UHGV virus genome: UHGV-1639282
Source: a virus
Length of the DNA stretch: 16,370 nt
Direction: 5' to 3' (one strand)
The notes under the pieces were generated by a model. The model was not told where the DNA came from and made no database searches. It saw only the letters and a program-made list of their open reading frames with translations. Shown here in pieces: positions 2,515 to 16,135 of this stretch; the stretch's first letter is position 1, and each line of letters opens with the position of its first letter. The position numbers and the translations under genes are program-made.

Positions 2515-2784
2515 ATGTCCGCACTGAAAAAGCAGCGCATCGATTTGAGATTAACCGATGACGATAAAAGCATCATCGAGGAAGCTGCCGCAATGTCTAA
2601 CCAGAGCATTACCCAGTTCATGGTTAGCAGTGCATCCGAACGTGCCGTGAAGGTGATAGAGCAACACCGTAGACTGGTTCTAAGTGAAGAGTCCTGGAAT
2701 CTGGTTATGGACGCTATAAGCAATCCTCCGGCACCGAACGACAAGCTGAAACGAGCTGCCAATCGTCTGAAAAGCATGGAGTAA
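2515..2784 (+). CDS. ataR: DUF1778-type RHH antitoxin (AtaR/TacA family)
   Basis: 89 aa: MSALKKQRIDLRLTDDDKSIIEEAAAMSNQSITQFMVSSASERAVKVIEQHRRLVLSEESW. It closely resembles AtaR/TacA sequences as I recall them, and it sits 7 nt upstream of a GNAT toxin gene. ATG with AGGGGG SD. Confidence 0.88.
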   Translation: MSALKKQRIDLRLTDDDKSIIEEAAAMSNQSITQFMVSSASERAVKVIEQHRRLVLSEESWNLVMDAISNPPAPNDKLKRAANRLKSME

Positions 2785-2791
2785 TTTACTC

Positions 2792-3313
2792 GTGAGCAAT
2801 ACGACGATCGAGATTTTCTCTGGAGAGAACGATTATGATCTAAACGGTTTTGATTGCGGCGAAGAGTCACTAAACGCATTTTTGACCAACCACTTAAAAA
2901 GACAGCATGAAGGAAAAATTCTTCGCGCTTATGTGCTTTGCACTAAAGAAGAAATACCAAAGGTATTAGGTTATTACACTTTGTCAGGCAGCTGCTTTGA
3001 GAAAGAAACCTTACCTTCAAAGAGTCAGCAAAAGAAAGTGCCTTATCGGAATGTCCCAAGTATCACTTTAGGCAGACTGGCTTTGGACAAATCTCTTCAA
3101 GGTCATGGGCTTGGCTCAATGCTTGTAACACATGCAATGCGCGTTGTGTACAATGCATCTCTTGCTGTAGGCATTCATGGACTTTTCGTTGAGGCGTTAA
3201 ATGACAAAGCCAAGGCGTTTTATAAAAGTTTAGGCTTTATCCAGCTGGTTGGTAACAACGAGCGTTCTTTGTTCTATCCTACAAAATCTATCGAAAAATT
3301 GTTCGAAGAATAA
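2792..3313 (+). CDS. ataT: GNAT-family acetyltransferase toxin (AtaT/TacT family, aminoacyl-tRNA acetylating)
   Basis: 173 aa, GTG start with GGAG upstream. Contains the GNAT core LQGHGLGSMLVTHAMRVVYNASLAVGIHGLFVEALNDKAKAFYKSLGF and the N-terminal DYDLNGFDCGEESLNAFL segment typical of AtaT/TacT. Classic antitoxin-then-toxin order. Confidence 0.88.
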   Translation: MSNTTIEIFSGENDYDLNGFDCGEESLNAFLTNHLKRQHEGKILRAYVLCTKEEIPKVLGYYTLSGSCFEKETLPSKSQQKKVPYRNVPSITLGRLALDKSLQGHGLGSMLVTHAMRVVYNASLAVGIHGLFVEALNDKAKAFYKSLGFIQLVGNNERSLFYPTKSIEKLFEE

Positions 3314-4764: not shown

Positions 4765-5086
4765 GTTTTCCTCCATGAAAAGTCAAATCGGGATGGCGGA
4801 TTTATATCACATTTCACCCTTTTGTTGTAGGTGTGTACTTACCTATCATTCAGCATTGCAACCGATTGATGAGAAAGCACCTACTCCAACCCATCGCCAG
4901 TTATAGATGCTACACGCTTTGTATAAGGTATAGTCGTTCACTTTTTTAACAGCATATATGGGTATGACTGTCTCCTGTCCACCAATGATAGCTTCACCAT
5001 AACATATAGGTGTCGGCAATTTCTGGCAGCCAGTAAGAGAGAGAACAACAGCTATTGTTAGAAATAATCTTTACATCATTTACTCA

Positions 5087-5695
5087 TCAGTTATACAGAT
5101 TTCTATTTATTACCGGTACTCTGCCATTTACGCTAAAACTATGGCCGCCATTAAGTTGGTTTACGAATATCGAGCTAACAGTATTTCCATATGCCGCATA
5201 TCCATAAACCATTGTCATGGCTCCGCCCGGTACTGGAACAGCGGACACATTCGCATATGTTGGGATTATCGCTGGAGGGTAATCAAAAACATGCTCTCCA
5301 GAGCTGTTCCACTCCGTATTATTAAGAAAGGTAAATGAAAGTGGGATATTTGCCGTATTATAGATTTCCTCCCCTTGTGCATTGAAAAAACTCATGCCCC
5401 AAGTTTCTTTTTTGGCTATACCTTTCGAAAATACGTATATCGTGGCACTAGAGTCGCTACCCCGACCTCCGAAACTGTAAATCACCTGGTTGTTACGCAC
5501 TATTCTGTTGGCTATTAATGAAACAGCTTTCGAATAGACAACAAAAATAATCGGTGAACGATCTGGAGATATTTTGGTGTTAAACTCTGTCCCGCCGGAC
5601 AAAGAAACAACCTGCTTTCTCTGAAAAACGATAGGAGACAAAGAAGGAGACATCCAGACCTTCCCGTCAGATCGATATATCTTGCTTCCGTACAT
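5087..5695 (-). CDS. Hypothetical protein (202 aa), Ser/Gly/Asn/Tyr-rich, no signal peptide recognised
   Basis: Complete ORF with ATG at 5695-5693 overlapping the stop of the upstream ORF (TAATG). Composition suggests a beta-rich fold. No family recognised. GC looks somewhat lower than the tail genes. Confidence 0.55.
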   Translation of the reverse strand: MYGSKIYRSDGKVWMSPSLSPIVFQRKQVVSLSGGTEFNTKISPDRSPIIFVVYSKAVSLIANRIVRNNQVIYSFGGRGSDSSATIYVFSKGIAKKETWGMSFFNAQGEEIYNTANIPLSFTFLNNTEWNSSGEHVFDYPPAIIPTYANVSAVPVPGGAMTMVYGYAAYGNTVSSIFVNQLNGGHSFSVNGRVPVINRNLYN

Positions 5696-5949
5696 TATTT
5701 TTGAAAAACCAATATGTTTAAATTACCACTAGCTCCAGACCACGAAATGGTATTTCCAGAAACCGTAAGACTTGTGTACTTTCCATTGGTTACGTCCATT
5801 ATGTAATAGTCGATTCCCAATCCCGCCTCAACCTCATATGTTCTACTTCCTGAACCAGAGGGAGTAAAATAATCGAGGTAATAAACAGGGGCCAACGCAT
5901 TGACCATCTCCTGTCTTGATGGCGACCAAACCTGTGCACCATAGCTCAT
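5695..5949 (-). CDS. Hypothetical protein (84 aa), translationally coupled to the downstream 202-aa ORF
   Basis: ATG at 5949-5947 preceded by AAGGA. The stop TAA overlaps the next start by one base. No recognisable motifs. Confidence 0.5.
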   Translation of the reverse strand: MSYGAQVWSPSRQEMVNALAPVYYLDYFTPSGSGSRTYEVEAGLGIDYYIMDVTNGKYTSLTVSGNTISWSGASGNLNILVFQK

Positions 5950-6086
5950 AAATATATCCTTATACTTTTAAGCAGGGGCTGGTTTAGCTCCATCCCCGAT
6001 TGAAGTTGTTTATTCTTTAGGTGAATTTAACTTCGTTTCAAGCTCCTCAACCCTTTTGGTCAATTGCTGAATATGATGCATGAGAC

Positions 6087-6116
6087 AAGGCCCGCTATCG
6101 GGCCTTAATTTTTATT
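6087..6116 (+). terminator. Intrinsic-terminator-like hairpin AAGGCCCG-CTAT-CGGGCCTT followed by AATTTTTATT (T-tract on the plus strand)
   Basis: Perfect 8-bp GC-rich stem with 4-nt loop and a downstream T-run on the plus strand. It lies immediately beyond the tfa stop (6112-6114). On the minus strand it has an A-tract before it and no U-tract after, so it is best oriented to stop plus-strand (antisense) transcription, or it acts as a weak bidirectional terminator. Confidence 0.4.
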
Positions 6117-6639
6117 CAGGCTTTTGTGGCCATTCAGGATTTGCCGTATCCACACGGCTGACCAGAACACTGTAGCGTTCCCATGCTTCCAGTCGTGTGC
6201 GCTCCTCGTCTGTTGCCATATTCAGCCTGACAGCGCGTTCCAGCGGCTGGATGACTGATTCAGCTTCGGAAAGCAATGCGGCCTTTTGTGATTCGGCCTG
6301 TTGTTGTTGCTCGTCTGCCGTATAAATCCGTTTAACCACAGCTCCGTCCCTGAACATCCATTTACCCGAAATATCAGCCCGGCGATTTGCTGTAATGTCA
6401 GCAACCTCAACCACACTTAAACCTTCTGGATTTATTGTAGATACGTCTTTATTTATAGCCACAATAATTCCATCTGATGTGTAAGCAATTTTTATAGTGT
6501 CATCCTGGAAGTTCTTTTGTTCCTCATACCAGTTTTTACCGTCTTCAGAATACAACCAGACAACACCAAATTGTCGCGTCAATTCATATTGTTCAACAGT
6601 TTTTGGATTACCTGATCTGATGTTTTTTAAATGCTGCAT
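6112..6639 (-). CDS. tfa: Tail fiber assembly protein (Tfa-like chaperone)
   Basis: 175 aa. C-terminal region [25 protein letters not shown] matches the conserved end of lambda-type Tfa proteins as I recall them. Its start is 2 nt after the side tail fiber stop. Confidence 0.82.
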
Positions 6640-6641
6640 AA

Positions 6642-9600
6642 TTAAATACTTCCCGCGTTATACCATGTACCATTGATACAATACTGCACCGGCCTTGCCT
6701 GAGTTGTATCAATAAGTTCGTCCTTATTTGAGTTAATTGAGGCAGTAACAACATAACCAGATTTATCGTTCCATCCAGGACCATTCCATGTTTGCACAGA
6801 CGATTTTGTACCTAATCGAATACCTGTAATAAATCGTGAATTACATTCTGCTTTGGTATATGCCCCAACATCTCCCGCAGATGGTTTGCGTGTTGTAGTA
6901 TAAAATTCCGACCAGTCGGCTTCAAAACCATAACCGTCACGCGCAGAACGATAATAAATACCGCCGTTCTTATAATTCACGCGGAACTGTACAGCAGGGC
7001 AGCTCCCCGTATTCATATTGAAGTGGAGGATTAATGTCGATGCTCCACTGATATCTGCATCATAAACACCGCTATTCCAGTTCCAGCCAACAGCTTTATC
7101 ATTTGCAACCCTGCTTCCTGTTTGCCCTAAAGCAAATGCAGGCTGCTGGTTTTTCGTGTTGTAGTCTCGTCGCCAGCCAGGAGCATAAGCATCACCATGA
7201 TTAATATAAGTGAATTGTGCATTAGTAGTTCCGCCACCGCTGGAAGTGCTCGGGGTGGTTACACGGATGGTCATGGCACCTTTATTACCCATAACCTCAA
7301 TAACGCAACCAGCAAGGTGAATAAGTCCACATCCGGTGTCAGTAATAATTTTATTATTGCCGTATGACCATGAGCATTTACACATCCAGTATGGATGATT
7401 GAAGGCCCACTGAGATTCCAGCCATTCAATAAATTGCGCCGTCGTCCAGTTTCCTGCACCTGTGCTAATAGAGCCATGAAAAGAGCGGCAAGCACCTATT
7501 GTTTGCGTAAATTTATCTTTGTTTGGAATATCTGCGCCGTTCTGGTTTTTCTGTAATGCTCCTGCGGCTAATTCTACAGTTTGCTCAAGATTTAAATCTG
7601 CCGCCGTTAGCTCAATATTTTTAGAACCGTCAAACGACACCCCATTTATAGTTCTAGCGGTTTGTAACTTGGTCGCTGTAGCCGCGTTACCGGATGTATT
7701 CTGATTACCCGCAACGTTAACACCAGGTAAATTAATATTCGCAGTGCCATCGAAGCTAACACCACCGATGGTTCTTGCTGTCGCAAGTTTTGTCGCGGTA
7801 GCAGCATTCCCCGTGGTGTTCTGGTTACCAGCAATGTTTACACCCGGCAGGTTGATATTGGCGGAGCCATCGAATGACACGCCGCCTATTGTGCGTGCTG
7901 TTTGCAGTTTTGTTGCAGTTGCAGCATTACCGTTCAAACTACCATTGATGCCGCCAGTAACATTGAGTCCATTACCAATGGACACAGCACCGCTGGTATT
8001 ATTAATTGTAATAGGTCGCAAACCGTTCCATGAACCTAATGTGTCTCCTGATGCTGTTAGCATGAAATATGTGTTCGATCCATCATTACGGATAAAGAAC
8101 CCAAAGCTACCGTAAGCAATGCGGAAACCATTTGCATATTTTGAAATGATCTCGCCAGAAGATGTCAAACCTCCAGATAATGTACCACCGGTAAGAGGTA
8201 ATGCACCGACATCAGCCGCAGTAGGCTTGTTTTTAGTGTTATAAGAACGACGCCAGCCTGGCGCATAATCACTCCCATTGTACACATAAATAAATTCCGC
8301 ATTATTAACACCACCATGACCTGATGTTGTTGTCGTTGTAACACGAATAGTGTAGTGGCTTGTTGACTTATTACTAAACACCTCAATCACGGAACCAGAT
8401 AGATCGATCCTACCGCAACCAGTGTCGTCTATATAATTATTGTTGGCGTAAGCCCATGAGCACCGTGCAATCCAATATTTGTTTGAAAATGCACCCTGAT
8501 TATTTAGCCAAGTTATAAATTGAGCAGTCGTAAATGGCGTTCCGTTACCACTATTTAACCATCCAGCGGCAGCGGTTGGCGCGTTTATATCAGCCGGCTG
8601 AGGCATAAATCCAGTCGTGTAAACCTGCTCCCAACCACTTTCAAAACCATAGCCATCGCGAGATGAACGATAAAACAACCCACCATTTTTATAGTGAGCC
8701 TTAATTTGAAGCGTACGGCAACTACCTACACCAGTATAAAAGTTGGCAAGAATATAACTGTCGCCCGTTCTAGTTACATTATAAGCACCAGATTCAGCAT
8801 TCCACGGCACGCCGCCATCAGCATCAGCATATGACCCTGTTGCTCTTCTTGCGAAAGCGGCAACATGCGCGGCGGTTAAAGTGATATCAGTAGAGCCATC
8901 AAATGGAACACCGGATATTTTTCTTGCAGTCTGAAGTTTCGTAGCTGTATCAGAGTTCCCCTTAACCCCTTTTGGAGAATTAAGTGGTGTATTGATCGTC
9001 ACTTCACCTGTTGCGTTATTTACTGCAAATGGTCGAAGACCGTTCCAGCCACCGTACTGGTCGCCTTTATCAGTCATGAGCAAGTAAGTATTTGCTCCAT
9101 CATTTCGCCATATGACACCGTAATCGCCAGCAATCATCCTTAACGCATTCTGACTACGGACAATAACTTCATCATTAGCGTAAACCTTATTACCGCTAAT
9201 ATCCGCATTTGTGAGGAGTGCGTGCGAACTATAGAATCCTCTACCGTTGGAGAAATCAAGTATAGTATCAGCGTCCACGCATTCTGTTCTAGGGTCTGTA
9301 GCGCCCCATTTGTAAGTTGATTGCCCGATAACATAATCGGCAGATGGTACAACAACAGATAAGCCTTCTTCTACATATACAGCAATAGGAAACGCTTCAC
9401 CTTCAACATAGAACACAGAACACAGATCATCCGCTTTTCTACCCATCATGATAGAATGAATAGCACGCTCATTTGCGTGATAGATATGAAACATTCCATA
9501 AGCATAATGTCCCCTGTCAGTCCAACCGCCAGGCATGACAAAACCATTGAACTCACAGTTGTTCATCCTATCATTGGCAGTCTTTGAACTTGTACTTATC

Positions 9601-11297
9601 GTCACCCTGGATGCTAATTCACTGCTGAATCCAGAAGAACGACGAATAACCACAGGGTAAAACTTACCAGCTTCAACTCCTGCGGGCGCATTCACTGTTG
9701 AATACTTCATTCCTCGTTTAGCGGCCATATCAGTCTTGCTGGCAGCATTAATGTTGCTCAGGAAGCGGCCCTTGTCTGGGATATCAGCGCCATTCTGATT
9801 CTTCGCCAATCGGCTATTCGCATTGTCATTGGCTGCTTTTACTGCCTTTGGCGTTGCCGCCAGCGTTTCAGACGTGCTGTTGGTCGCACTGCTGAGCTGT
9901 ACTATCCCCTTTTTCGTCGTGCTCGCATCCTCAAGCGCCACAGCGGATGCAATATCCTCTGCCCGTTTTGCCGCTGTCTCGGCGCGCGTTGCCGCGGATT
10001 CTGCCGTACTTTTGCTCTGTGCTGCCGCCGTCGCACTGCCAGCTGCCTCTGTCGCCTTCGTGGATGCCGTCGTGGCGCTGCCCTTCGCTGCTGACGCTTG
10101 TCTGGTCGCCTCATCTTTTGAAGCAGACGCAGATGATGCCGATGACGCCGCCGAACTGGCTGACGATGCGGCAGCCGTTTTTGAGGATTCTGCGCTGGTT
10201 TCCGACGCTTTCGCGTTCGTTTCGGATGTCTTCGCTGCGGAAGCAGACCTCGCTGCTGCGCTGGCCTGTTCAGTGGCTTCGCCAGCCTTCGTTGTGGCTG
10301 TTGAAGCAGACGATGCGGCGCTTTCTGCCGATTTTCCGGCGGCGGTGGCACTGGCTGAGGCCTGCCCGGCACTTGTTGACGCGGCACTGGCAGACGACGC
10401 AGCCGCTGTTTTTGAGCCTGCCGCAGCTGAGGCGCTCTGTCCCGCTGCCGTCTCAGAAGACTTAGCGTTCGTCTCGGACGTTTTTGCCGCCTTCGCGGAA
10501 TTTGCTGCCGCCGTTGCCGAGGAAGCTGCGCTACTGGCGCTCAAGGATGCGTTCGTTTCTGATGATTTCGCTGCCTCTTTTGAGGCCGCCGCATCCCGGG
10601 CTGAGGTGGCAGCTTCTGACGCTTTCGTGGTCGCGGTGGATGCAGAAGTGGCTGCTGATTGTTGTGACGCTGCGGCATTCGTTTCAGATTTTTTCGCAGC
10701 AGTTGCACTCGCACTTGCGGCACTTTGTGAGGATGCCGCATCGGATGCACTTTGAGACGCTTGAGAGGCTTTTTCTCCAGCGGTATTGGCGCTTTCTGCT
10801 GCTGCGGCAGCACTGGCCGCCGCCTCACGAGCTTTGTCGCCAGCAGCATCAATCGCGTCAGTGTTATTTTTATACCACTCAACGTTTTCGTTGTGCTCGT
10901 TGACGATCTGCATTAGCGGCTTAACGGTTACTTCTGTACCGTCTTCACGCTCGATTGTCACCTCATCCAGCGCAGTCAACCAACTGCGCATGGACTTGGA
11001 ATCAGCCGACATACGCGACATTAGCGCAGTAAAGCGCGCGCTAAACTGTGTTAAGTCGCCTTCATAGGTCGTAATGATTCGGCACGGAACCTCAGACTGA
11101 GTTTCGCCGGTATAAGGTTCTGAGAGAACAATGTTCGTATCACTGGTTACGCGCTTGATCTCATACAGCTTATTGTCGGGGCCAATGACGATCATCCCCG
11201 GCAACACACCATTAGCTGTTACGTTCCAGGCTGTCCCTGCCCCAACCAGAGTATTGCTACCCTGTGTAAATGTGATAGTACCTTCCCTGTACCACAT
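6642..11297 (-). CDS. Side tail fiber protein (Stf-like), 1551 aa, mosaic
   Basis: ATG with AAGGAG 8 nt upstream. Long Ala/Ser/Thr-rich shaft containing [24 protein letters not shown] and [42 protein letters not shown], which I recall as near-identical to lambda Stf. Phage tail fibre repeats ([29 protein letters not shown]) in four copies. Duplicated distal modules, followed by tfa. Confidence 0.9.
7590..7945 (-). repeat. Three tandem ~120-bp coding repeats (phage tail fibre repeat, ~40 aa each) inside stf; a fourth isolated copy near 8880-8960
   Basis: Protein repeats [40 protein letters not shown] x3 with matching DNA periodicity visible at 7600-7940. The isolated copy reads [29 protein letters not shown]. 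Boundaries are approximate. Confidence 0.6.
9950..10850 (-). repeat. Low-complexity GC-rich (GCN-codon) Ala/Ser/Thr-rich shaft-coding region of stf
   Basis: About 300 aa dominated by A/S/T with recurring KTSETNA/SASAA motifs. Its lack of stops in several frames produces the long spurious overlapping ORFs on both strands in the supplied track. Boundaries are approximate. Confidence 0.6.
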
Positions 11298-11390: not shown

Positions 11391-14300
11391 TCACAGACGG
11401 CCAATTCTTACTCGTAGGACGTTGTTATCGTCATAAACGTCAATCCGCTGACCATTTATAACCAATCGCCCATTGCCGCCGCTATTACCGTTGATCTCAA
11501 GCGTTCCATTTTTGCCGAACCGCCATCCAGATCTACCGCTAACAAAATTGGTAGATTGCAGATCGCCTACTTTTGCATTGGTGATTGTGCCATCCTTGAT
11601 ATACGCTCCATTCATATAGGCGATACTGTTTTCGATAACAAATGGCGTTGTGATCTTCCCGTTAACAGAGTTGACCAAACCAAACCTGTCCGCCTGAACC
11701 AAAAACTGAGATAGCCCAGTGGTGTCAATACCAAGCGCAATACCGGCAACATACTTCTGCCCTCCGCTCGTTGAAGTCTCCATTTTCAACGTCCACGCGG
11801 TTGATACTTTTTTGTTGGTATCAGCAATAGCTGTTGCCTGCTGTTGAATTGTCGCGGTATTTCCATCCACCTCTGCTTTCAGAGTATCGATTCGCCCACT
11901 CAGAGCATTATCTGCCTGCGTTCTCGCTGTCGTTTCAGTTGTTACCGCCGCGGAAATGTTGGCTGCCGTTTGAGACTCTAAGTTTGTGATTTGAGTCGCC
12001 AATGCAGCATCTTGCTCTGTACGCGTTTTCGTTTCGGTTGCTACAGCCGCTTTAATATCCTCTTTGTATTGAGAGGTCAGCTTGGTGATCTGAGACGACA
12101 ACGCCGAGTCAGCATCAGTTCGAGCCTGCGTTTCAACTGCAACGGCCGCACTAATATCTTTCGCTGTCTGTGCTTTTAAACTTGAAACCTCTTTTGTTAA
12201 AGCGGTATCACCATCTGCACGAGCCGTTGTTTCTCTGGCAAGAGACGCCTCGAGATCATTAGCTTTTGCTGTAAGAGACGTAATCTGGGTAGACAATGCA
12301 CTATCGGCATCAGTCCTTGCTTTTGTCTCTACAGCAACCGCTGCGGCAATATCAGTTCCGGTTTGTGCTCGCAGGCTGTTAATTTCTCGTGAGAGCGCCT
12401 GGTCAGCACTTGCTCTGGCCTCCTGCTCCTGAGTGATGGCAGCGGATATATCACCGTCAACCTTTGACTGAAGCTGGTTTATTTGTTTGGCTAACGCAGA
12501 GTCCCCGCTTGCTCGGGCCTCCTGCTCACTACGTATTGCAGCAGAAATATCATCATCAACCTTTGCCTGAAGTTGGGTGATCTGGCTTGCCAGAGCCGAA
12601 TCTTCCGTTGCTCGGGCTTCTTGCTCTTCCTTAATAGCTGCGACGATATCGTTGCTTACTTTCGACTCAAGCTGAGTGATCTGTGTCGTCAGAGCTTCAT
12701 CGGCAGATGTACGAGCCTCCTGCTCTGTACTAATCGCCGCGCTGATATCTCCTTCAAACTTAGATTGCAGCTGAGTGACACGCTTTGCCAACGCTTCATC
12801 GCCATCGGCACGAGCGGTGGACTCTTCCAGAATACTGGCCTTAATGTCTTCGCCAATTTCTACGCGAATTTCCTCAACCTTCGTGGCCATTGCAGACATA
12901 TCATCAGCAAAGGTTTTCTGTGTTGTTGCGATCTTCGCGTTATTGACCATCTGCTTGTGCTGGTCTTCATCTTGACGAAGAGCCAGGTCAATATTTGTTT
13001 TGGCTAACGCCTCAATGTTCGTAGTCAGTTCTGCACTGGTACGATCGACCTCTGCAACCGTCTTTTTCATTTCTTCAACGGCAGCGGAGCTTTCCTCTAC
13101 CGTTGACTGCAACACTTCCAGTTGTTTAGCGTTTGCAGCATCGCCTTCAACACGAGCCTCGCTTTCCTTAGCAATAAGAGCCGCCGCTTCATCTCTTGCA
13201 GCCTTTATTGCCTCGACTGTATTAGCGAGAGCTTTATCGTGTTCAGATACGGTGTTTTCGATTTCAACAATTGCAGCATCAGTAGCATCAATTTTTTCAA
13301 ACGCTTCATTGACCTTGTCGATCGTTGCCGAAACCTCACCTTTAAGCTCGGTTTGTGCGTTCTCCAAAGCATCGCTACGCTCGTTGAATTTTATTTCAAA
13401 ATCCGCGAGGTTATCGCTGAACTGCTTATCTAATTCAGCTATATCTTCCTTAACGTCGTTTACCGCCCCCTCCAAAGATTCGACGCTCTGGTTGATATGC
13501 TCATTTAACTCGTCAACTGCTTCTTGAGAGGCTTTGCTGTTGATGTCCTCAAGCAGAGCCTGACCAAGCTCGGAAGATGTAATTTTGCCAGTCAGGAACG
13601 ACAGTACATCGCGAGTTGTCGCCTCTGTACCCAAGTTTGAGTTCGGAGGACTTAACATACCTCGCTTGTTCGATGCTCGAACCCAGTAATACCACGTTTC
13701 GCTATCCCCAAGACCAGCATGTGTAAAGGTGGTGCTTGCAGACTCTGCGATCAGTTTCGCCGTATCCAGATTGTTGGTCTGGGATGCGTAAACATTAATG
13801 TGATCAAGGTCTACCGAATCTGGATTAACCCAATTCAGTATCACATTACGATAGTCTCCAACGGCCGTTAATGACGTTGGGGAATCCGGCGGTGTCATTG
13901 TGCCCAACACCTGATAAACGGCACTGATAATCTCTGTTTTTTTACCGTTGAATGAAACCGCATACAGCTGGAAGTCGTAGCGTCCATTCTCCGCGACATT
14001 AACGATTTCGTATTGCTCTTCGGTTACACGCGCCGATTGCCAGTTCGATACATTGTTTTCATCAGAACGTCGCCAACTGATCCAATACTCTGGAGATTTC
14101 CCTTCCCATGTTGCAGTCAGTTTTACTGACAGGTTGCCCGGGCTTGAGAGATAAGTCCCTTCAGTGATTTGCAGATTAGATGGCTTGGAGTAAGTTGGGT
14201 CCAATACCGTCGTATTCTGCGGGATCAGCGTTGCACCATTGTCGATTGCCTCATATTTAGACGGATTGTTCTCAACAGCGGTGATGTCAAAGCTACCCGG

Positions 14301-16118
14301 CGTTTCCCCCTGCGCGATGTTAACGATGCGAACGCGCATAGGTTCGAGGTCTGGTTCTGTAATAGTCCAGACGCCGTTCAAAACAGGCGTTTCAGCCGAA
14401 GACAGGGCTTTTGAAAACGTAACTTTTGTTATATTTTCGCCAGTTTCAAGAACATCGCGTTCAACGATTTTGCCTTCCTGATTCAGTATTCGAATAAAGC
14501 AGCCGCCTTTGGCTAACGACACAGGCGCATCGAGTGTGACGCTGTTTTTGGTAAACGCCACAATTCGACCTGAGTTACGTTTGCCTGCGCGATATTTGTT
14601 CTGAATCAGAACGGTTTCACCAGGCATCAGAAATGACGCGTCTAAGCCGGCAGTAAATGTAATTACATCCGACTCCATTCTGGCGGTATATAAAAGCCAC
14701 AAACCAACTCGGTGAGCCTGCCCTCGGCTTGTACAGCCAAATGCTACGACTTCTGTTTTACGCTCACCATAACGGCGCATTGCGTCCTGATCTTCGACGT
14801 ACTCGATGTTTTGCTTATAACCGTCCTCCTTGTTGTTGTAGGTTACGAGCGCAACGGATGGGCGATCTTTACGCGCAGAACCTTTATAGGTAAACAATCC
14901 ATCTTTGACGTTAGAGTTGGTAAACATCATTACCGGATCTGATGGGCTATCCTGCATGATGTTAACCATCCCACCAGCCCAAAACACCATGCCGCGGAAT
15001 GCTCCGGCAATATCCTGAATTAGCCGGTATGCGTCCTGTCGACTGGTGATCTGTGTATTGATTGCAAAGCGTTTCTCTTTGCCACCAAAGCCATCATCGA
15101 CCTCTTCGTCACAATATCGACCAATCTGGTACAACTGGCCAAGGTCAATCATAGATTCCGACACATACTGACCAAGGCCATATCGAGCATTGGTCAGCAA
15201 ATCAAAGAGAATCCACGCGGGGTTCGAAGAAGACAACAGCTTAAAAGTGCCATCCCATACACCATCATAAGTGTTGCTGGCCTCGTTGTAGTTTGACGGC
15301 ACGCGAATTTTTAATCCACGTACCAAATACGAACGAGATGGCATGGTGCTACCAAACTGCTCAGAATTAACCTTCAGACCCACCAGCACAGAGTTTGGGT
15401 AGTTCATCGGTGTATCTACAATCTCACCTATTGAGTCCACCCATGTATCGTTATAGAGATACTGGCTGCTGTTATCATCGGTAATACGGACCACACGAAC
15501 CTTGTATGCTCGTCCAGGCTTAGGCAGCTTCAGCTCATAGCTACGGTAATAAACGCCGGTCTTCTTTGCTGTTAGCTTAATGCCAACGCTTTTTTCACCT
15601 TCAGCGACCACATCTACAAATGTTGAGTCGCCATTTGCTATCTGGAACTTGTACTCAACAGTCGTACCGTTCGTGTCACCAGTTTTTTTATCTATGCTTC
15701 GCAAAGAAGGAAACTTCATGATGACACGAACCCGATCAGCTTCATCGTTATCGATTGAAACCGTTACATAATGTGTTTTTTTTAACTGGATATTGACGGA
15801 TTTAGGCGTTTCAACGAAATCAAAGCCAGACATTGGAGTCTGGTCTTGTGAACCGTCGCGAAAATCCCATGTGATTCCGCTGAAGTTGGAGGAACCGTCT
15901 TCATTTACAATCGGCAGATCGTCGATAAAAATAGATCTTGCGCCATTTACTAAGCCGCCAATTACCCCTTCCCCAAGAAGATCGAGGATAGCGGCCATTG
16001 CACGAGAATTTACGGTATCGTCGGCTTCAACCGGTGTACGGCTGGAGCTTTTGCTGCTTTTTTTACCACCCGCACCGGCAATAAACAGCGGTAGCTTTTT
16101 CTTCTTGAACTGTTCCAT
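11391..16118 (-). CDS. J-like tail tip / host specificity (central fiber) protein with extended coiled coil (~1575 aa from ATG 16118; the ORF track's 16124 start is TTG)
   Basis: The N-terminal ~650 aa carry lambda J-like motifs (AFGCTSRGQAHRVGLWLL, PAWILFDLLTNARYGLGQY) and the C-terminus has KYVAGIALGI...QFLVQADRFGL, also J-like. Between them is a ~600-aa alpha-helical region that includes ~10 tandem 33-aa repeats. The ATG at 16118-16116 has AAGGA upstream. Confidence 0.9.
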   Translation of the reverse strand: MEQFKKKKLPLFIAGAGGKKSSKSSSRTPVEADDTVNSRAMAAILDLLGEGVIGGLVNGARSIFIDDLPIVNEDGSSNFSGITWDFRDGSQDQTPMSGFDFVETPKSVNIQLKKTHYVTVSIDNDEADRVRVIMKFPSLRSIDKKTGDTNGTTVEYKFQIANGDSTFVDVVAEGEKSVGIKLTAKKTGVYYRSYELKLPKPGRAYKVRVVRITDDNSSQYLYNDTWVDSIGEIVDTPMNYPNSVLVGLKVNSEQFGSTMPSRSYLVRGLKIRVPSNYNEASNTYDGVWDGTFKLLSSSNPAWILFDLLTNARYGLGQYVSESMIDLGQLYQIGRYCDEEVDDGFGGKEKRFAINTQITSRQDAYRLIQDIAGAFRGMVFWAGGMVNIMQDSPSDPVMMFTNSNVKDGLFTYKGSARKDRPSVALVTYNNKEDGYKQNIEYVEDQDAMRRYGERKTEVVAFGCTSRGQAHRVGLWLLYTARMESDVITFTAGLDASFLMPGETVLIQNKYRAGKRNSGRIVAFTKNSVTLDAPVSLAKGGCFIRILNQEGKIVERDVLETGENITKVTFSKALSSAETPVLNGVWTITEPDLEPMRVRIVNIAQGETPGSFDITAVENNPSKYEAIDNGATLIPQNTTVLDPTYSKPSNLQITEGTYLSSPGNLSVKLTATWEGKSPEYWISWRRSDENNVSNWQSARVTEEQYEIVNVAENGRYDFQLYAVSFNGKKTEIISAVYQVLGTMTPPDSPTSLTAVGDYRNVILNWVNPDSVDLDHINVYASQTNNLDTAKLIAESASTTFTHAGLGDSETWYYWVRASNKRGMLSPPNSNLGTEATTRDVLSFLTGKITSSELGQALLEDINSKASQEAVDELNEHINQSVESLEGAVNDVKEDIAELDKQFSDNLADFEIKFNERSDALENAQTELKGEVSATIDKVNEAFEKIDATDAAIVEIENTVSEHDKALANTVEAIKAARDEAAALIAKESEARVEGDAANAKQLEVLQSTVEESSAAVEEMKKTVAEVDRTSAELTTNIEALAKTNIDLALRQDEDQHKQMVNNAKIATTQKTFADDMSAMATKVEEIRVEIGEDIKASILEESTARADGDEALAKRVTQLQSKFEGDISAAISTEQEARTSADEALTTQITQLESKVSNDIVAAIKEEQEARATEDSALASQITQLQAKVDDDISAAIRSEQEARASGDSALAKQINQLQSKVDGDISAAITQEQEARASADQALSREINSLRAQTGTDIAAAVAVETKARTDADSALSTQITSLTAKANDLEASLARETTARADGDTALTKEVSSLKAQTAKDISAAVAVETQARTDADSALSSQITKLTSQYKEDIKAAVATETKTRTEQDAALATQITNLESQTAANISAAVTTETTARTQADNALSGRIDTLKAEVDGNTATIQQQATAIADTNKKVSTAWTLKMETSTSGGQKYVAGIALGIDTTGLSQFLVQADRFGLVNSVNGKITTPFVIENSIAYMNGAYIKDGTITNAKVGDLQSTNFVSGRSGWRFGKNGTLEINGNSGGNGRLVINGQRIDVYDDNNVLRVRIGRL
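11870..12870 (-). repeat. About ten imperfect tandem 99-bp repeats encoding 33-aa coiled-coil units (consensus approx. DISAAIxxEQEARxxADxALxxQITQLQSKVxx) within the J-like gene
   Basis: The protein-level repeat is obvious in the translation. A DNA periodicity of ~99 bp is seen in recurring motifs such as GCTCGGGCCTCCTGCTC at ~12415, ~12513, ~12612 and ~12711. Boundaries are approximate. Confidence 0.65.
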
Positions 16119-16135
16119 GTTCAAAAAATCCTTGT

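Follow-up and report, generated by a model that had tools for sequence, protein, structure and literature searches.

The window analyzed here, a stretch of 16,370 nucleotides (nt) of the UHGV virus genome UHGV-1639282, carries on its minus strand two overlapping open reading frames (ORFs), ORF84 and ORF202, coding for proteins of 84 and 202 amino acids (aa). We propose that the two gene products are probably the two chains of a receptor-binding protein (RBP) belonging to the tip of the central tail fiber protein gpJ, with the adjoining cor gene as the cognate exclusion gene. This proposal rests on homology to a known receptor locus, a fold match, naturally fused relatives, strict adjacency of the two genes, a conserved gpJ tip, and linkage to Cor-type genes. 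The features of the pair are as follows.

5695-5949, minus strand: ORF84, 84 aa, phrog_557; proposed small subunit or adaptor domain of a two-chain RBP
5087-5695, minus strand: ORF202, 202 aa, phrog_425; proposed receptor-binding subunit
5693-5697, minus strand: TAATG stop/start overlap of ORF84 and ORF202, read from the sequence
5957-5961, minus strand: AAGGA Shine-Dalgarno sequence of ORF84, 7 nt ahead of the start codon, read from the sequence

On the plus strand, positions 5693-5697 read CATTA, that is TAATG on the coding strand, and the ORF84 stop and the ORF202 start thus have one base in common, as an earlier note on this DNA had described. Direct reading of the sequence found no Shine-Dalgarno sequence ahead of the ORF202 ATG, and its presence at ORF84 only would fit translational coupling of the two genes. 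The TAATG overlap is kept in phage SSU5, genes 22 and 23 of phage N15 likewise overlap by 1 nt, and gaps of 0 to 5 nt separate the small from the large gene in Tuinin, 933W, and PeterMerian. PGAP places the start of ORF202 relatives at Met15, giving 188 aa (related plasmids L001, 8288-8854, and L002, 6288-6854; the stretch concerned is 5654-5695 in the window). The first 14 residues of ORF202 (MYGxxIxxxDGxxW) are among the best-conserved parts of the family, even in homologs at 22-31% identity, and their codons differ from those of SSU5 by four synonymous and two nonsynonymous changes, with a ratio of nonsynonymous to synonymous substitution rates (dN/dS) of about 0.08. Because of this conservation, the low ratio, and the retention of TAATG in SSU5, the upstream ATG is very likely the true start of ORF202, and the PGAP start, 14 codons late, is wrong. 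A further annotation difference concerns L0126 of 933W, which is annotated with 75 aa, whereas full-length related genes encode 92 aa. Against SSU5, dN/dS is 0.095 for ORF84, and for ORF202 dN is 0.19 with synonymous sites saturated. Judged from sequence, ORF84 and ORF202 are genuine coding genes on which purifying selection is strong. The lower local G+C content remarked on in the earlier note is there as a small dip, 0.40-0.43 over the pair compared to about 0.43-0.49 in most tail genes.

Hydropathy analysis and the soluble structure models revealed no signal peptide, lipobox, beta-barrel, or transmembrane segment in ORF84 or ORF202, in line with what had been noted for signal peptides and transmembrane segments. 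The highest 19-residue Kyte-Doolittle means are 0.54 for ORF84 and 1.51 for ORF202, the hydropathy of the N-terminal 20 residues is -0.18 and -0.47, respectively, and cysteines are absent. Neither protein has a match in Pfam, NCBIfam, or PADLOC, and the PADLOC-DB 2.0 defense models returned nothing at E<=0.1 for either. A search for PF02413 (Caudo_TAP) or another chaperone family picked out only the upstream gene at 6112-6639, and the Cor models NF047972, phrog_1119, and a purpose-built Cor hidden Markov model (HMM) matched neither ORF84 nor ORF202, the neighboring gene alone being cor. A PDB sequence-profile search gave nothing significant for either protein. The earlier statement that the pair belongs to no recognized family therefore stands for Pfam, NCBIfam, and PADLOC but not for PHROGs, where ORF84 matches phrog_557 ("outer membrane protein"; 2.4e-24) and ORF202 matches phrog_425 ("membrane associated protein," category "moron"; 2.7e-48). 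These two names find no backing in the sequences, ORF84 and ORF202 being devoid of any membrane or export feature. The unsupported membrane names of PHROGs 557 and 425 have spread via pharokka-style annotation, and the NCBI protein P0037 (Escherichia coli, 182 aa), named "outer membrane protein," is a frameshift-like fusion of the small gene to the start of the large gene.

AlphaFold2 models of both proteins are all-beta, bearing out the beta-rich folds suspected before. The ORF202 model, built on a 27-sequence alignment, has a predicted local distance difference test score (pLDDT) of 81.5 and a predicted template modeling score of 0.80; the ORF84 model, built on a 29-sequence alignment, has a pLDDT of 81.8. 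The best fold match is a solved phage RBP, that of Oekolampad (PDB 9RPT chain C), whose fold consists of lectin-like beta-sandwiches (PMC13035648), and the guess of the earlier note at a binding or lectin-like module fits this result. In both models, confidence is lowest over about 20 N-terminal residues (pLDDT 51-65), although these rank among the best conserved; segments that take on order upon binding a partner would be expected to behave in this way. Each of the two proteins begins with its own conserved Met-x-(Y/F)-G motif. A homologous N-terminal segment common to both families, that is an internal duplication, is suggested by comparison of the two profiles, though no more than suggested, the hhalign E value being 0.004 at a probability of 8% and cross-HMM matches being weak.

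A first word-indexed search with ORF202 alone as the query returned only five close relatives, and alignments of phage homologs were needed. By tblastn, ORF202 homologs were found in 266 phage records falling into three groups: SSU5 (75% identity), T1-like Warwickviruses (30-33%, full length; E values of 7e-15 to 2e-13), and short-tailed Shiga toxin (Stx) phages, exemplified by L0127 of 933W (25%). In a pairwise comparison over the full length, bas04_0023 of Warwickvirus FritzSarasin is 31% identical to ORF202 (E value of 4e-21). A small ORF84-like gene lies directly upstream in all three groups, and the small gene immediately precedes the large one on the same strand at each of 80 IMG/VR loci, adjacency being a point that the earlier note had proposed to check. 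A J-tip domain is found at most 1.5 kb away in 52 of these 80 loci; the 24 loci with no J tip within 6 kb are Cyrano-type SSU5-like elements. Among the SSU5-like members of this IMG/VR set, the distance to the J tip, upstream of the ORF202 homolog, is 4.5-5.1 kb.

A full HMMER search of 1.84 billion representatives yielded 186 clusters. About a dozen of the proteins are single chains of 307-325 aa, in which the ORF202 profile matches only residues ~95-280, and the first ~85 residues of these fused proteins match the ORF84 profile at 16-35 bits. With the fused protein P0133 as the tblastn query, both genes of split pairs were covered in two collinear pieces, and gp23 of Pantoea phage Vid5 was recovered as a full-length fused gene directly after the J-like gp22. 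In pairwise comparison, Vid5 gp23 has no significant match to ORF202 and is 31% identical to ORF84 over 65 residues. By these profile and tblastn matches, the two ORFs are equivalent to the two domains of the single-chain relatives, a correspondence that is classic evidence for ORF84 and ORF202 working as one complex. In more distant phages, the family HMMs match the large genes of N15/phi80 (gp23) and PeterMerian at 41 bits each and the small genes at 19 bits (gp22) and 31 bits, respectively. N15, phi80, Stx phages, and Koroua have the pair immediately after gpJ, and Vid5 has the fusion there. In PeterMerian, an FhuA-dependent T1-like phage, J is followed by genes for proteins of 103 and 197 aa and then by a Cor-like gene that is on the opposite strand.

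The window is 93-99.7% identical to E. coli plasmids of ~95-125 kb, and its proteins are 68-75% identical to those of Salmonella phage SSU5; on these matches, it is part of an SSU5-like phage-plasmid. The order on the minus strand is gpJ, side fiber, tfa, ORF84, ORF202, cor, a holin-like gene, endolysin, Rz, and Rz1, and the pair accordingly lies directly downstream of tfa, as had been stated. The neighbors that bear on the argument are listed below.

11391-16124, minus strand: gpJ-like central tail fiber/tail tip gene
11391-11783, minus strand: gpJ's tip domain at the C terminus, ~130 aa, on which the pair is proposed to dock
6642-11297, minus strand: side tail fiber gene (stf)
6112-6639, minus strand: tfa, Caudo_TAP match at 6.4e-38
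6087-6106, strand not given: hairpin 3' of the tfa stop, at the recombination boundary between the swappable side-fiber/tfa cassette and the pair-plus-cor block
4846-5079, minus strand: cor, gene for a superinfection-exclusion lipoprotein and, putatively, the pair's cognate partner; TAA at codon 3 (5071-5073)

Over the last 130 aa of gpJ, identity to the J tips of FritzSarasin (Bas04), PeterMerian (Bas05), N15, and Vid5 is 40-42%, the full-length J alignment extends to the final residues, and the last 24 aa are 62% identical to L0125 of 933W. This tip domain is conserved in every carrier examined. The cor gene starts 8 nt past the ORF202 stop. An intact relative in pLAU-OXA1 matches the NCBIfam model lamb_exclu_cor (NF047972) at 2.1e-23 and phrog_1119 at 2.3e-30, and the window Cor is 43-58% identical to Cor of phi80, N15, and Stx phages. 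In an alignment, however, the window cor reads ATGATGTAA compared to ATGATGAAA in two relatives, with TAA in place of AAA, and the sole remaining cor ORF of the window begins past the lipobox cysteine. Barring a sequencing error, the Cor protein of this element is probably inactive.

Comparison of related elements separates the pair from the side fiber. In many E. coli plasmids, of the F8111 type, the pair and cor are 99.5% identical to the window from the hairpin at 6087-6106 on, whereas side fiber and tfa differ. The J protein of phage Cyrano is 99.6% identical, and 100% over the tip, but Cyrano lacks tfa, the pair, and cor at the tail locus, and its deletion ends exactly after the cor stop. 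Because stf/tfa swaps leave the pair and cor intact, and because the Cyrano deletion ends after cor, the pair and cor behave, on this comparative evidence, as one module apart from the side-fiber module. The distal side fiber and tfa for their part form a separately exchangeable cassette (6087-6106 and 6112-11297 in the window), and some relatives have frameshifted or partial fiber genes at the side-fiber position. A scan for promoters and terminators between tfa and the pair gave nothing above chance, the T-run of the post-tfa hairpin being on the wrong strand, and Rfam gave no matches.

We propose that ORF84 and ORF202 are coproduced from one message, ORF202 probably being translated by reinitiation at TAATG, which would lead to roughly equal amounts of the two proteins. 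Natural fusions suggest that the two beta-sandwich proteins would form a heterodimer equivalent to the single-chain relatives of 310-325 aa. Their conserved, poorly modeled N-terminal strands might then dock this complex noncovalently on the C-terminal domain of the J trimer, and, by analogy with the complex of the Oekolampad RBP and LptDE, variable loops in the C-terminal half of ORF202 might bind the terminal receptor, an outer membrane protein, and permit DNA ejection. In lysogens, Cor, where intact, may act from the periplasm to block that receptor. Such receptor blocking is established for Cor/FhuA, Llp/FhuA, and Rtp45/LptD (for T5 Llp, see PMC9586334). Within the RBP interpretation, we infer that a heterodimer forms, that it docks via its N-terminal strands, that the variable C-terminal half of ORF202 binds the receptor, and how ejection is triggered.

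As for the receptor, one candidate is FhuA, since the pair is linked to a close relative of Cor, which the phi80 record has blocking FhuA. The nearest RBP homologs come from BtuB-dependent phages and would instead suggest BtuB, ORF202 having 31% identity to RBPs of the BtuB type and 21-23% to those of the FhuA type. Another TonB-dependent transporter would be equally possible. Maffei et al. described the variable locus beside gpJ in Warwickviruses as a bona fide RBP locus with alleles that track the terminal receptor (PMC8594841). A 2026 preprint confirmed this correlation: it reported FritzSarasin, Tuinin, JK16, NorthRox, and MatMar to be BtuB dependent by random barcode transposon sequencing (RB-TnSeq), named for each phage a single gene of the locus as coding for the RBP, with interface predicted template modeling scores of 0.43-0.82 in AlphaFold3 models with BtuB, and described one or two accessory proteins co-located with the RBP gene (10.64898/2026.04.02.716166). 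The locus allele of these five phages is the BtuB-linked one. A study of attachment to FhuA treated gpJ as the RBP and is of no help on the pair (PMC10373560), and the C terminus of J is not resolved in the T1 tail-tip structure.

Several observations weigh against a two-chain RBP at the gpJ tip. The assignment of BtuB-type RBPs in T1-like phages is itself correlative and based on AlphaFold3 modeling (PMC8594841; 10.64898/2026.04.02.716166), and we equate "CDS_0022" of Tuinin in the preprint with the 204-aa ORF202 homolog by way of the same numbering in GenBank OR896828. In the window, about 5.7 kb of sequence (stf and tfa) lies between J and the pair. In the Stx2 phage Sp5, in-frame deletions of ORF72 (92 aa) and ORF73 (205 aa) are tolerated: nine genes are required for plaque formation or lysogeny on K-12, and neither of the two is among them. 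The gpJ-like ORF71, located immediately upstream, is essential (PMC5155283). The pair is thus auxiliary at least in the podovirus Sp5. SSU5 was reported to bind the lipopolysaccharide core via its side fiber (Kim 2014, as cited in PMC12312913), and the text of the Vid5 virion proteomics study names gp07, gp99, and gp10 as additional virion proteins and not the fused gp23 (PMC6266253). Finally, homologous pairs occur away from tail genes. In Cyrano-type elements, TciA/TciB-like genes on one side and a DUF4942 gene on the other flank a divergent pair, with identities of 34% and 26%:

L095 11218-12116, phage Cyrano (OV696614.1): remote pair in an accessory hotspot with nucleotide-metabolism genes, far from the tail genes

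Another homologous pair (94 aa and 211 aa) is found in ~12-kb integrase-bearing islands that have no J gene. These islands (L007-L009, E. coli chromosomal; pair at ~7713-8636) also carry genes for an AlpA-like helix-turn-helix protein, an HNH protein, a Sf6-type small terminase, a prolyl isomerase, and a tape-measure-like protein, and they are inserted in the eut locus or beside a LysR-family regulator gene. By gene content, they look like phage satellites with an RBP cassette of their own. The remote and island contexts fit a portable host-range cassette, and a competitive, nonstructural role of the pair would agree with them as well.

The latter role corresponds to the reading of the pair as a nonstructural accessory, or moron, expressed from the prophage or plasmid and serving exclusion or competition together with, or alongside, Cor or Lom, possibly by capping or mistargeting the J tips of superinfecting or helper phages. 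Such a role would agree with the position of the pair next to cor in the window and SSU5 and next to lom in 933W, with the filing of phrog_425 under "moron," with the dispensability of the Sp5 homologs for infection of K-12 (PMC5155283), with the islands lacking J, and with the Cyrano-type hotspot, where ISEcp1-CTX-M-15 takes the place of the pair in pLAU-OXA1 (L097 26739-27447). However, having no signal peptide, lipobox, or transmembrane segment, the two proteins cannot reach the envelope, where Cor and Lom act. There is no PADLOC match, and the "membrane" labels are without sequence support, one source record being the frameshift-like fusion P0037. Moreover, strictly virulent T1-like phages have the pair within their receptor-specificity locus, the best fold match is a solved RBP, and fused forms directly follow J. 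On balance, we regard a moron function as unlikely. The earlier note had placed the pair among exchangeable cargo, with an effector, virulence factor, or two-component exclusion function in mind, and this framing finds no support, on the same grounds: no PADLOC match, no route to the envelope, homologs at a receptor-tracking locus of strictly virulent T1-like phages, and a position after gpJ in several phages. The structure search that it had proposed placed the pair with tail fiber components, essentially the outcome it had itself named as speaking against independent cargo.

Since stf and tfa immediately precede the pair, in SSU5 as in the window, the pair might instead serve the side tail fiber as an accessory or chaperone for folding or attachment. 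We give this little credence: stf and tfa are exchanged while the pair and cor remain 99.5% identical, neither protein matches Caudo_TAP or another chaperone family, and the stf protein of Cyrano is 88% identical over its first ~540 residues with no pair adjoining. Furthermore, in N15, phi80, Stx phages, Koroua, PeterMerian, and Vid5, the gene ahead of the pair or fusion is J and not a side fiber gene. Scarcely tenable is a decaying single gene split by a frameshift, to which the single-chain relatives with both domains and the 1-nt overlap at the junction might lend color. The split is kept in SSU5-like, T1-like, N15/phi80, Stx, and island contexts and at all 80 IMG/VR loci, selection is strongly purifying on both ORFs and extends to the first 14 codons of ORF202, and each half has its own conserved start motif. 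Fused forms do exist, as the earlier note had suggested checking, but they are only distantly related, and its inference of a pseudogene in that event fails, since the split form is conserved and under selection.

The distribution of window-type and Cyrano-type pairs was surveyed in 5,426 complete E. coli genomes. The 3' end of J, encoding the tip, was found on 180 plasmids, the window-type pair on 68 plasmids, and the Cyrano-type pair in 151 records. If all carriers have this J, these counts imply at least 39 plasmids with both pairs; at least two plasmids, NZ_CP116406.1 and NZ_JBUBIR010000005.1, carry both. In the regions read, pLAU-OXA1 has only the tail-locus pair and Cyrano only the remote pair. 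We had considered a rule of one pair per genome at alternative sites, as a sign of essentiality, and rejected its strict form because of the two plasmids with both pairs.

SSU5-like phage-plasmids are common in E. coli, and CTX-M-15 is among the resistance genes found on some of them (PMC9600943). The range of bacteria open to infection by these elements depends on their receptor-binding proteins. If the pair is indeed the terminal RBP, host range and receptor would become predictable and engineerable for the SSU5-like group, where the two genes are at present annotated as hypothetical or, misleadingly, "membrane" proteins, and a function that can be tested would be assigned to genes 22 and 23 of N15/phi80 and to L0126/L0127 of Stx phages. 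The split/fused relationship would also tie together RBP families now treated as unrelated. A module of a separate J-tip RBP and a cognate exclusion lipoprotein was already known, as were BtuB-type two-gene loci, which had not been recognized as encoding a split RBP. New are the assignment of the pair, together with N15/phi80 gp22/gp23 and Stx L0126/L0127, to the J-tip RBP module, the split/fused relationship, the fold-level link to an LptD-type RBP, and the finding of two alleles on SSU5-like plasmids.

It is tempting to speculate, although we hold this only tentatively and think it may well be wrong, that the conserved gpJ tip is a universal socket accepting exchangeable RBP cassettes, whether two-chain or fused, and that FhuA-, BtuB-, and LptD-type RBPs are one superfamily. 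Cassettes would then move among T1-like siphoviruses, N15/phi80-type lambdoid phages, Stx phages, SSU5-like phage-plasmids, and integrase-bearing islands, and many SSU5-like plasmids would have two very different alleles, one at the tail locus with cor and one at the distant hotspot. If so, one phage-plasmid could show alternative receptor specificities, and satellite-like islands could retarget the particles of helper phages.

Elsewhere in the window, a toxin-antitoxin gene pair is located between the lysis and partition genes:

2515-3313, plus strand: DUF1778 antitoxin and GNAT acetyltransferase toxin genes, the toxin being annotated as KacT-like in Cyrano

The relative F8111 has two different genes in place of this pair. 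Base composition is uneven along the window. Positions 1-1200 have a G+C content of 0.27-0.32, well under that of the rest (0.40-0.50), and positions 9600-10900 within the side tail fiber gene have a G+C content of 0.58-0.63 with a strong AT skew; this high-GC stretch corresponds to a long Ala/Ser/Thr-rich repeat region of the protein (residues ~140-450).

Among known systems, that of phage T5 offers a parallel in working principle only. Its RBP pb5 is a separate protein held noncovalently at the tip of the central fiber, and an adjacent lipoprotein, Llp, blocks the receptor from the periplasm (PMC9586334); pb5, however, is one large protein, and the searches made found no relation to it in sequence or fold. 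The RBP of Oekolampad (Bas18), for which direct receptor binding was demonstrated by cryo-electron microscopy of the RBP-LptDE complex (10.1101/2025.07.07.663478), is likewise encoded beside a gene for a small exclusion lipoprotein, of the Rtp45 type, and its gene adjoins gpJ. It differs in being a single chain of 321 aa with LptD as the receptor. Since it has no significant sequence similarity to the ORF84 and ORF202 families (6 bits), the link is at the fold level only.

The Stx phage genes L0126/L0127 of 933W, which equal ORF72/ORF73 of Sp5, are a homologous pair (32% and 25% identity) straight after the gpJ-like L0125/ORF71. These phages are short-tailed podoviruses, lom and not cor follows the pair, and single in-frame deletions are viable on K-12. 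In the classic phages N15 and phi80, genes 22 and 23 are unannotated. N15 depends on FhuA. The order is J, gene 22 (100 aa), gene 23 (224-225 aa), and cor, with 1-nt overlaps in N15, and Cor is 43% identical. In contrast to the window, the pair comes straight after J and the side fiber follows cor, and pairwise identity to ORF202 is 21-23%, in the N-terminal half only.

The BtuB-type locus of Warwickviruses (bas04_0025/0024/0023 in FritzSarasin; CDS0024/0023/0022 in Tuinin) has the same three components as the window. Unlike the temperate phage-plasmid of the window, Warwickviruses are virulent, and genetics has shown their receptor to be BtuB. The arrangement differs as well: the Warwickvirus locus is convergent with gpJ and touches it, with the lipoprotein gene first and only distantly Cor-like, whereas in the window the pair comes after stf and tfa on the same strand and is followed by a close Cor relative. 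In FritzSarasin, the third gene of the locus, bas04_0025 (L006 4451-4720), encodes a lipoprotein (MKKLIAVIATVAALTGC...) with a Cor PHROG match at 1e-7, which suggests a Cor-like exclusion protein aimed at BtuB. Along with this Cor-like lipoprotein, the locus encodes a ~92-aa protein 37% identical to ORF84 and a 204-aa protein 31% identical to ORF202; as in the window, the small and large genes abut, and the C-terminal tip of J is conserved.

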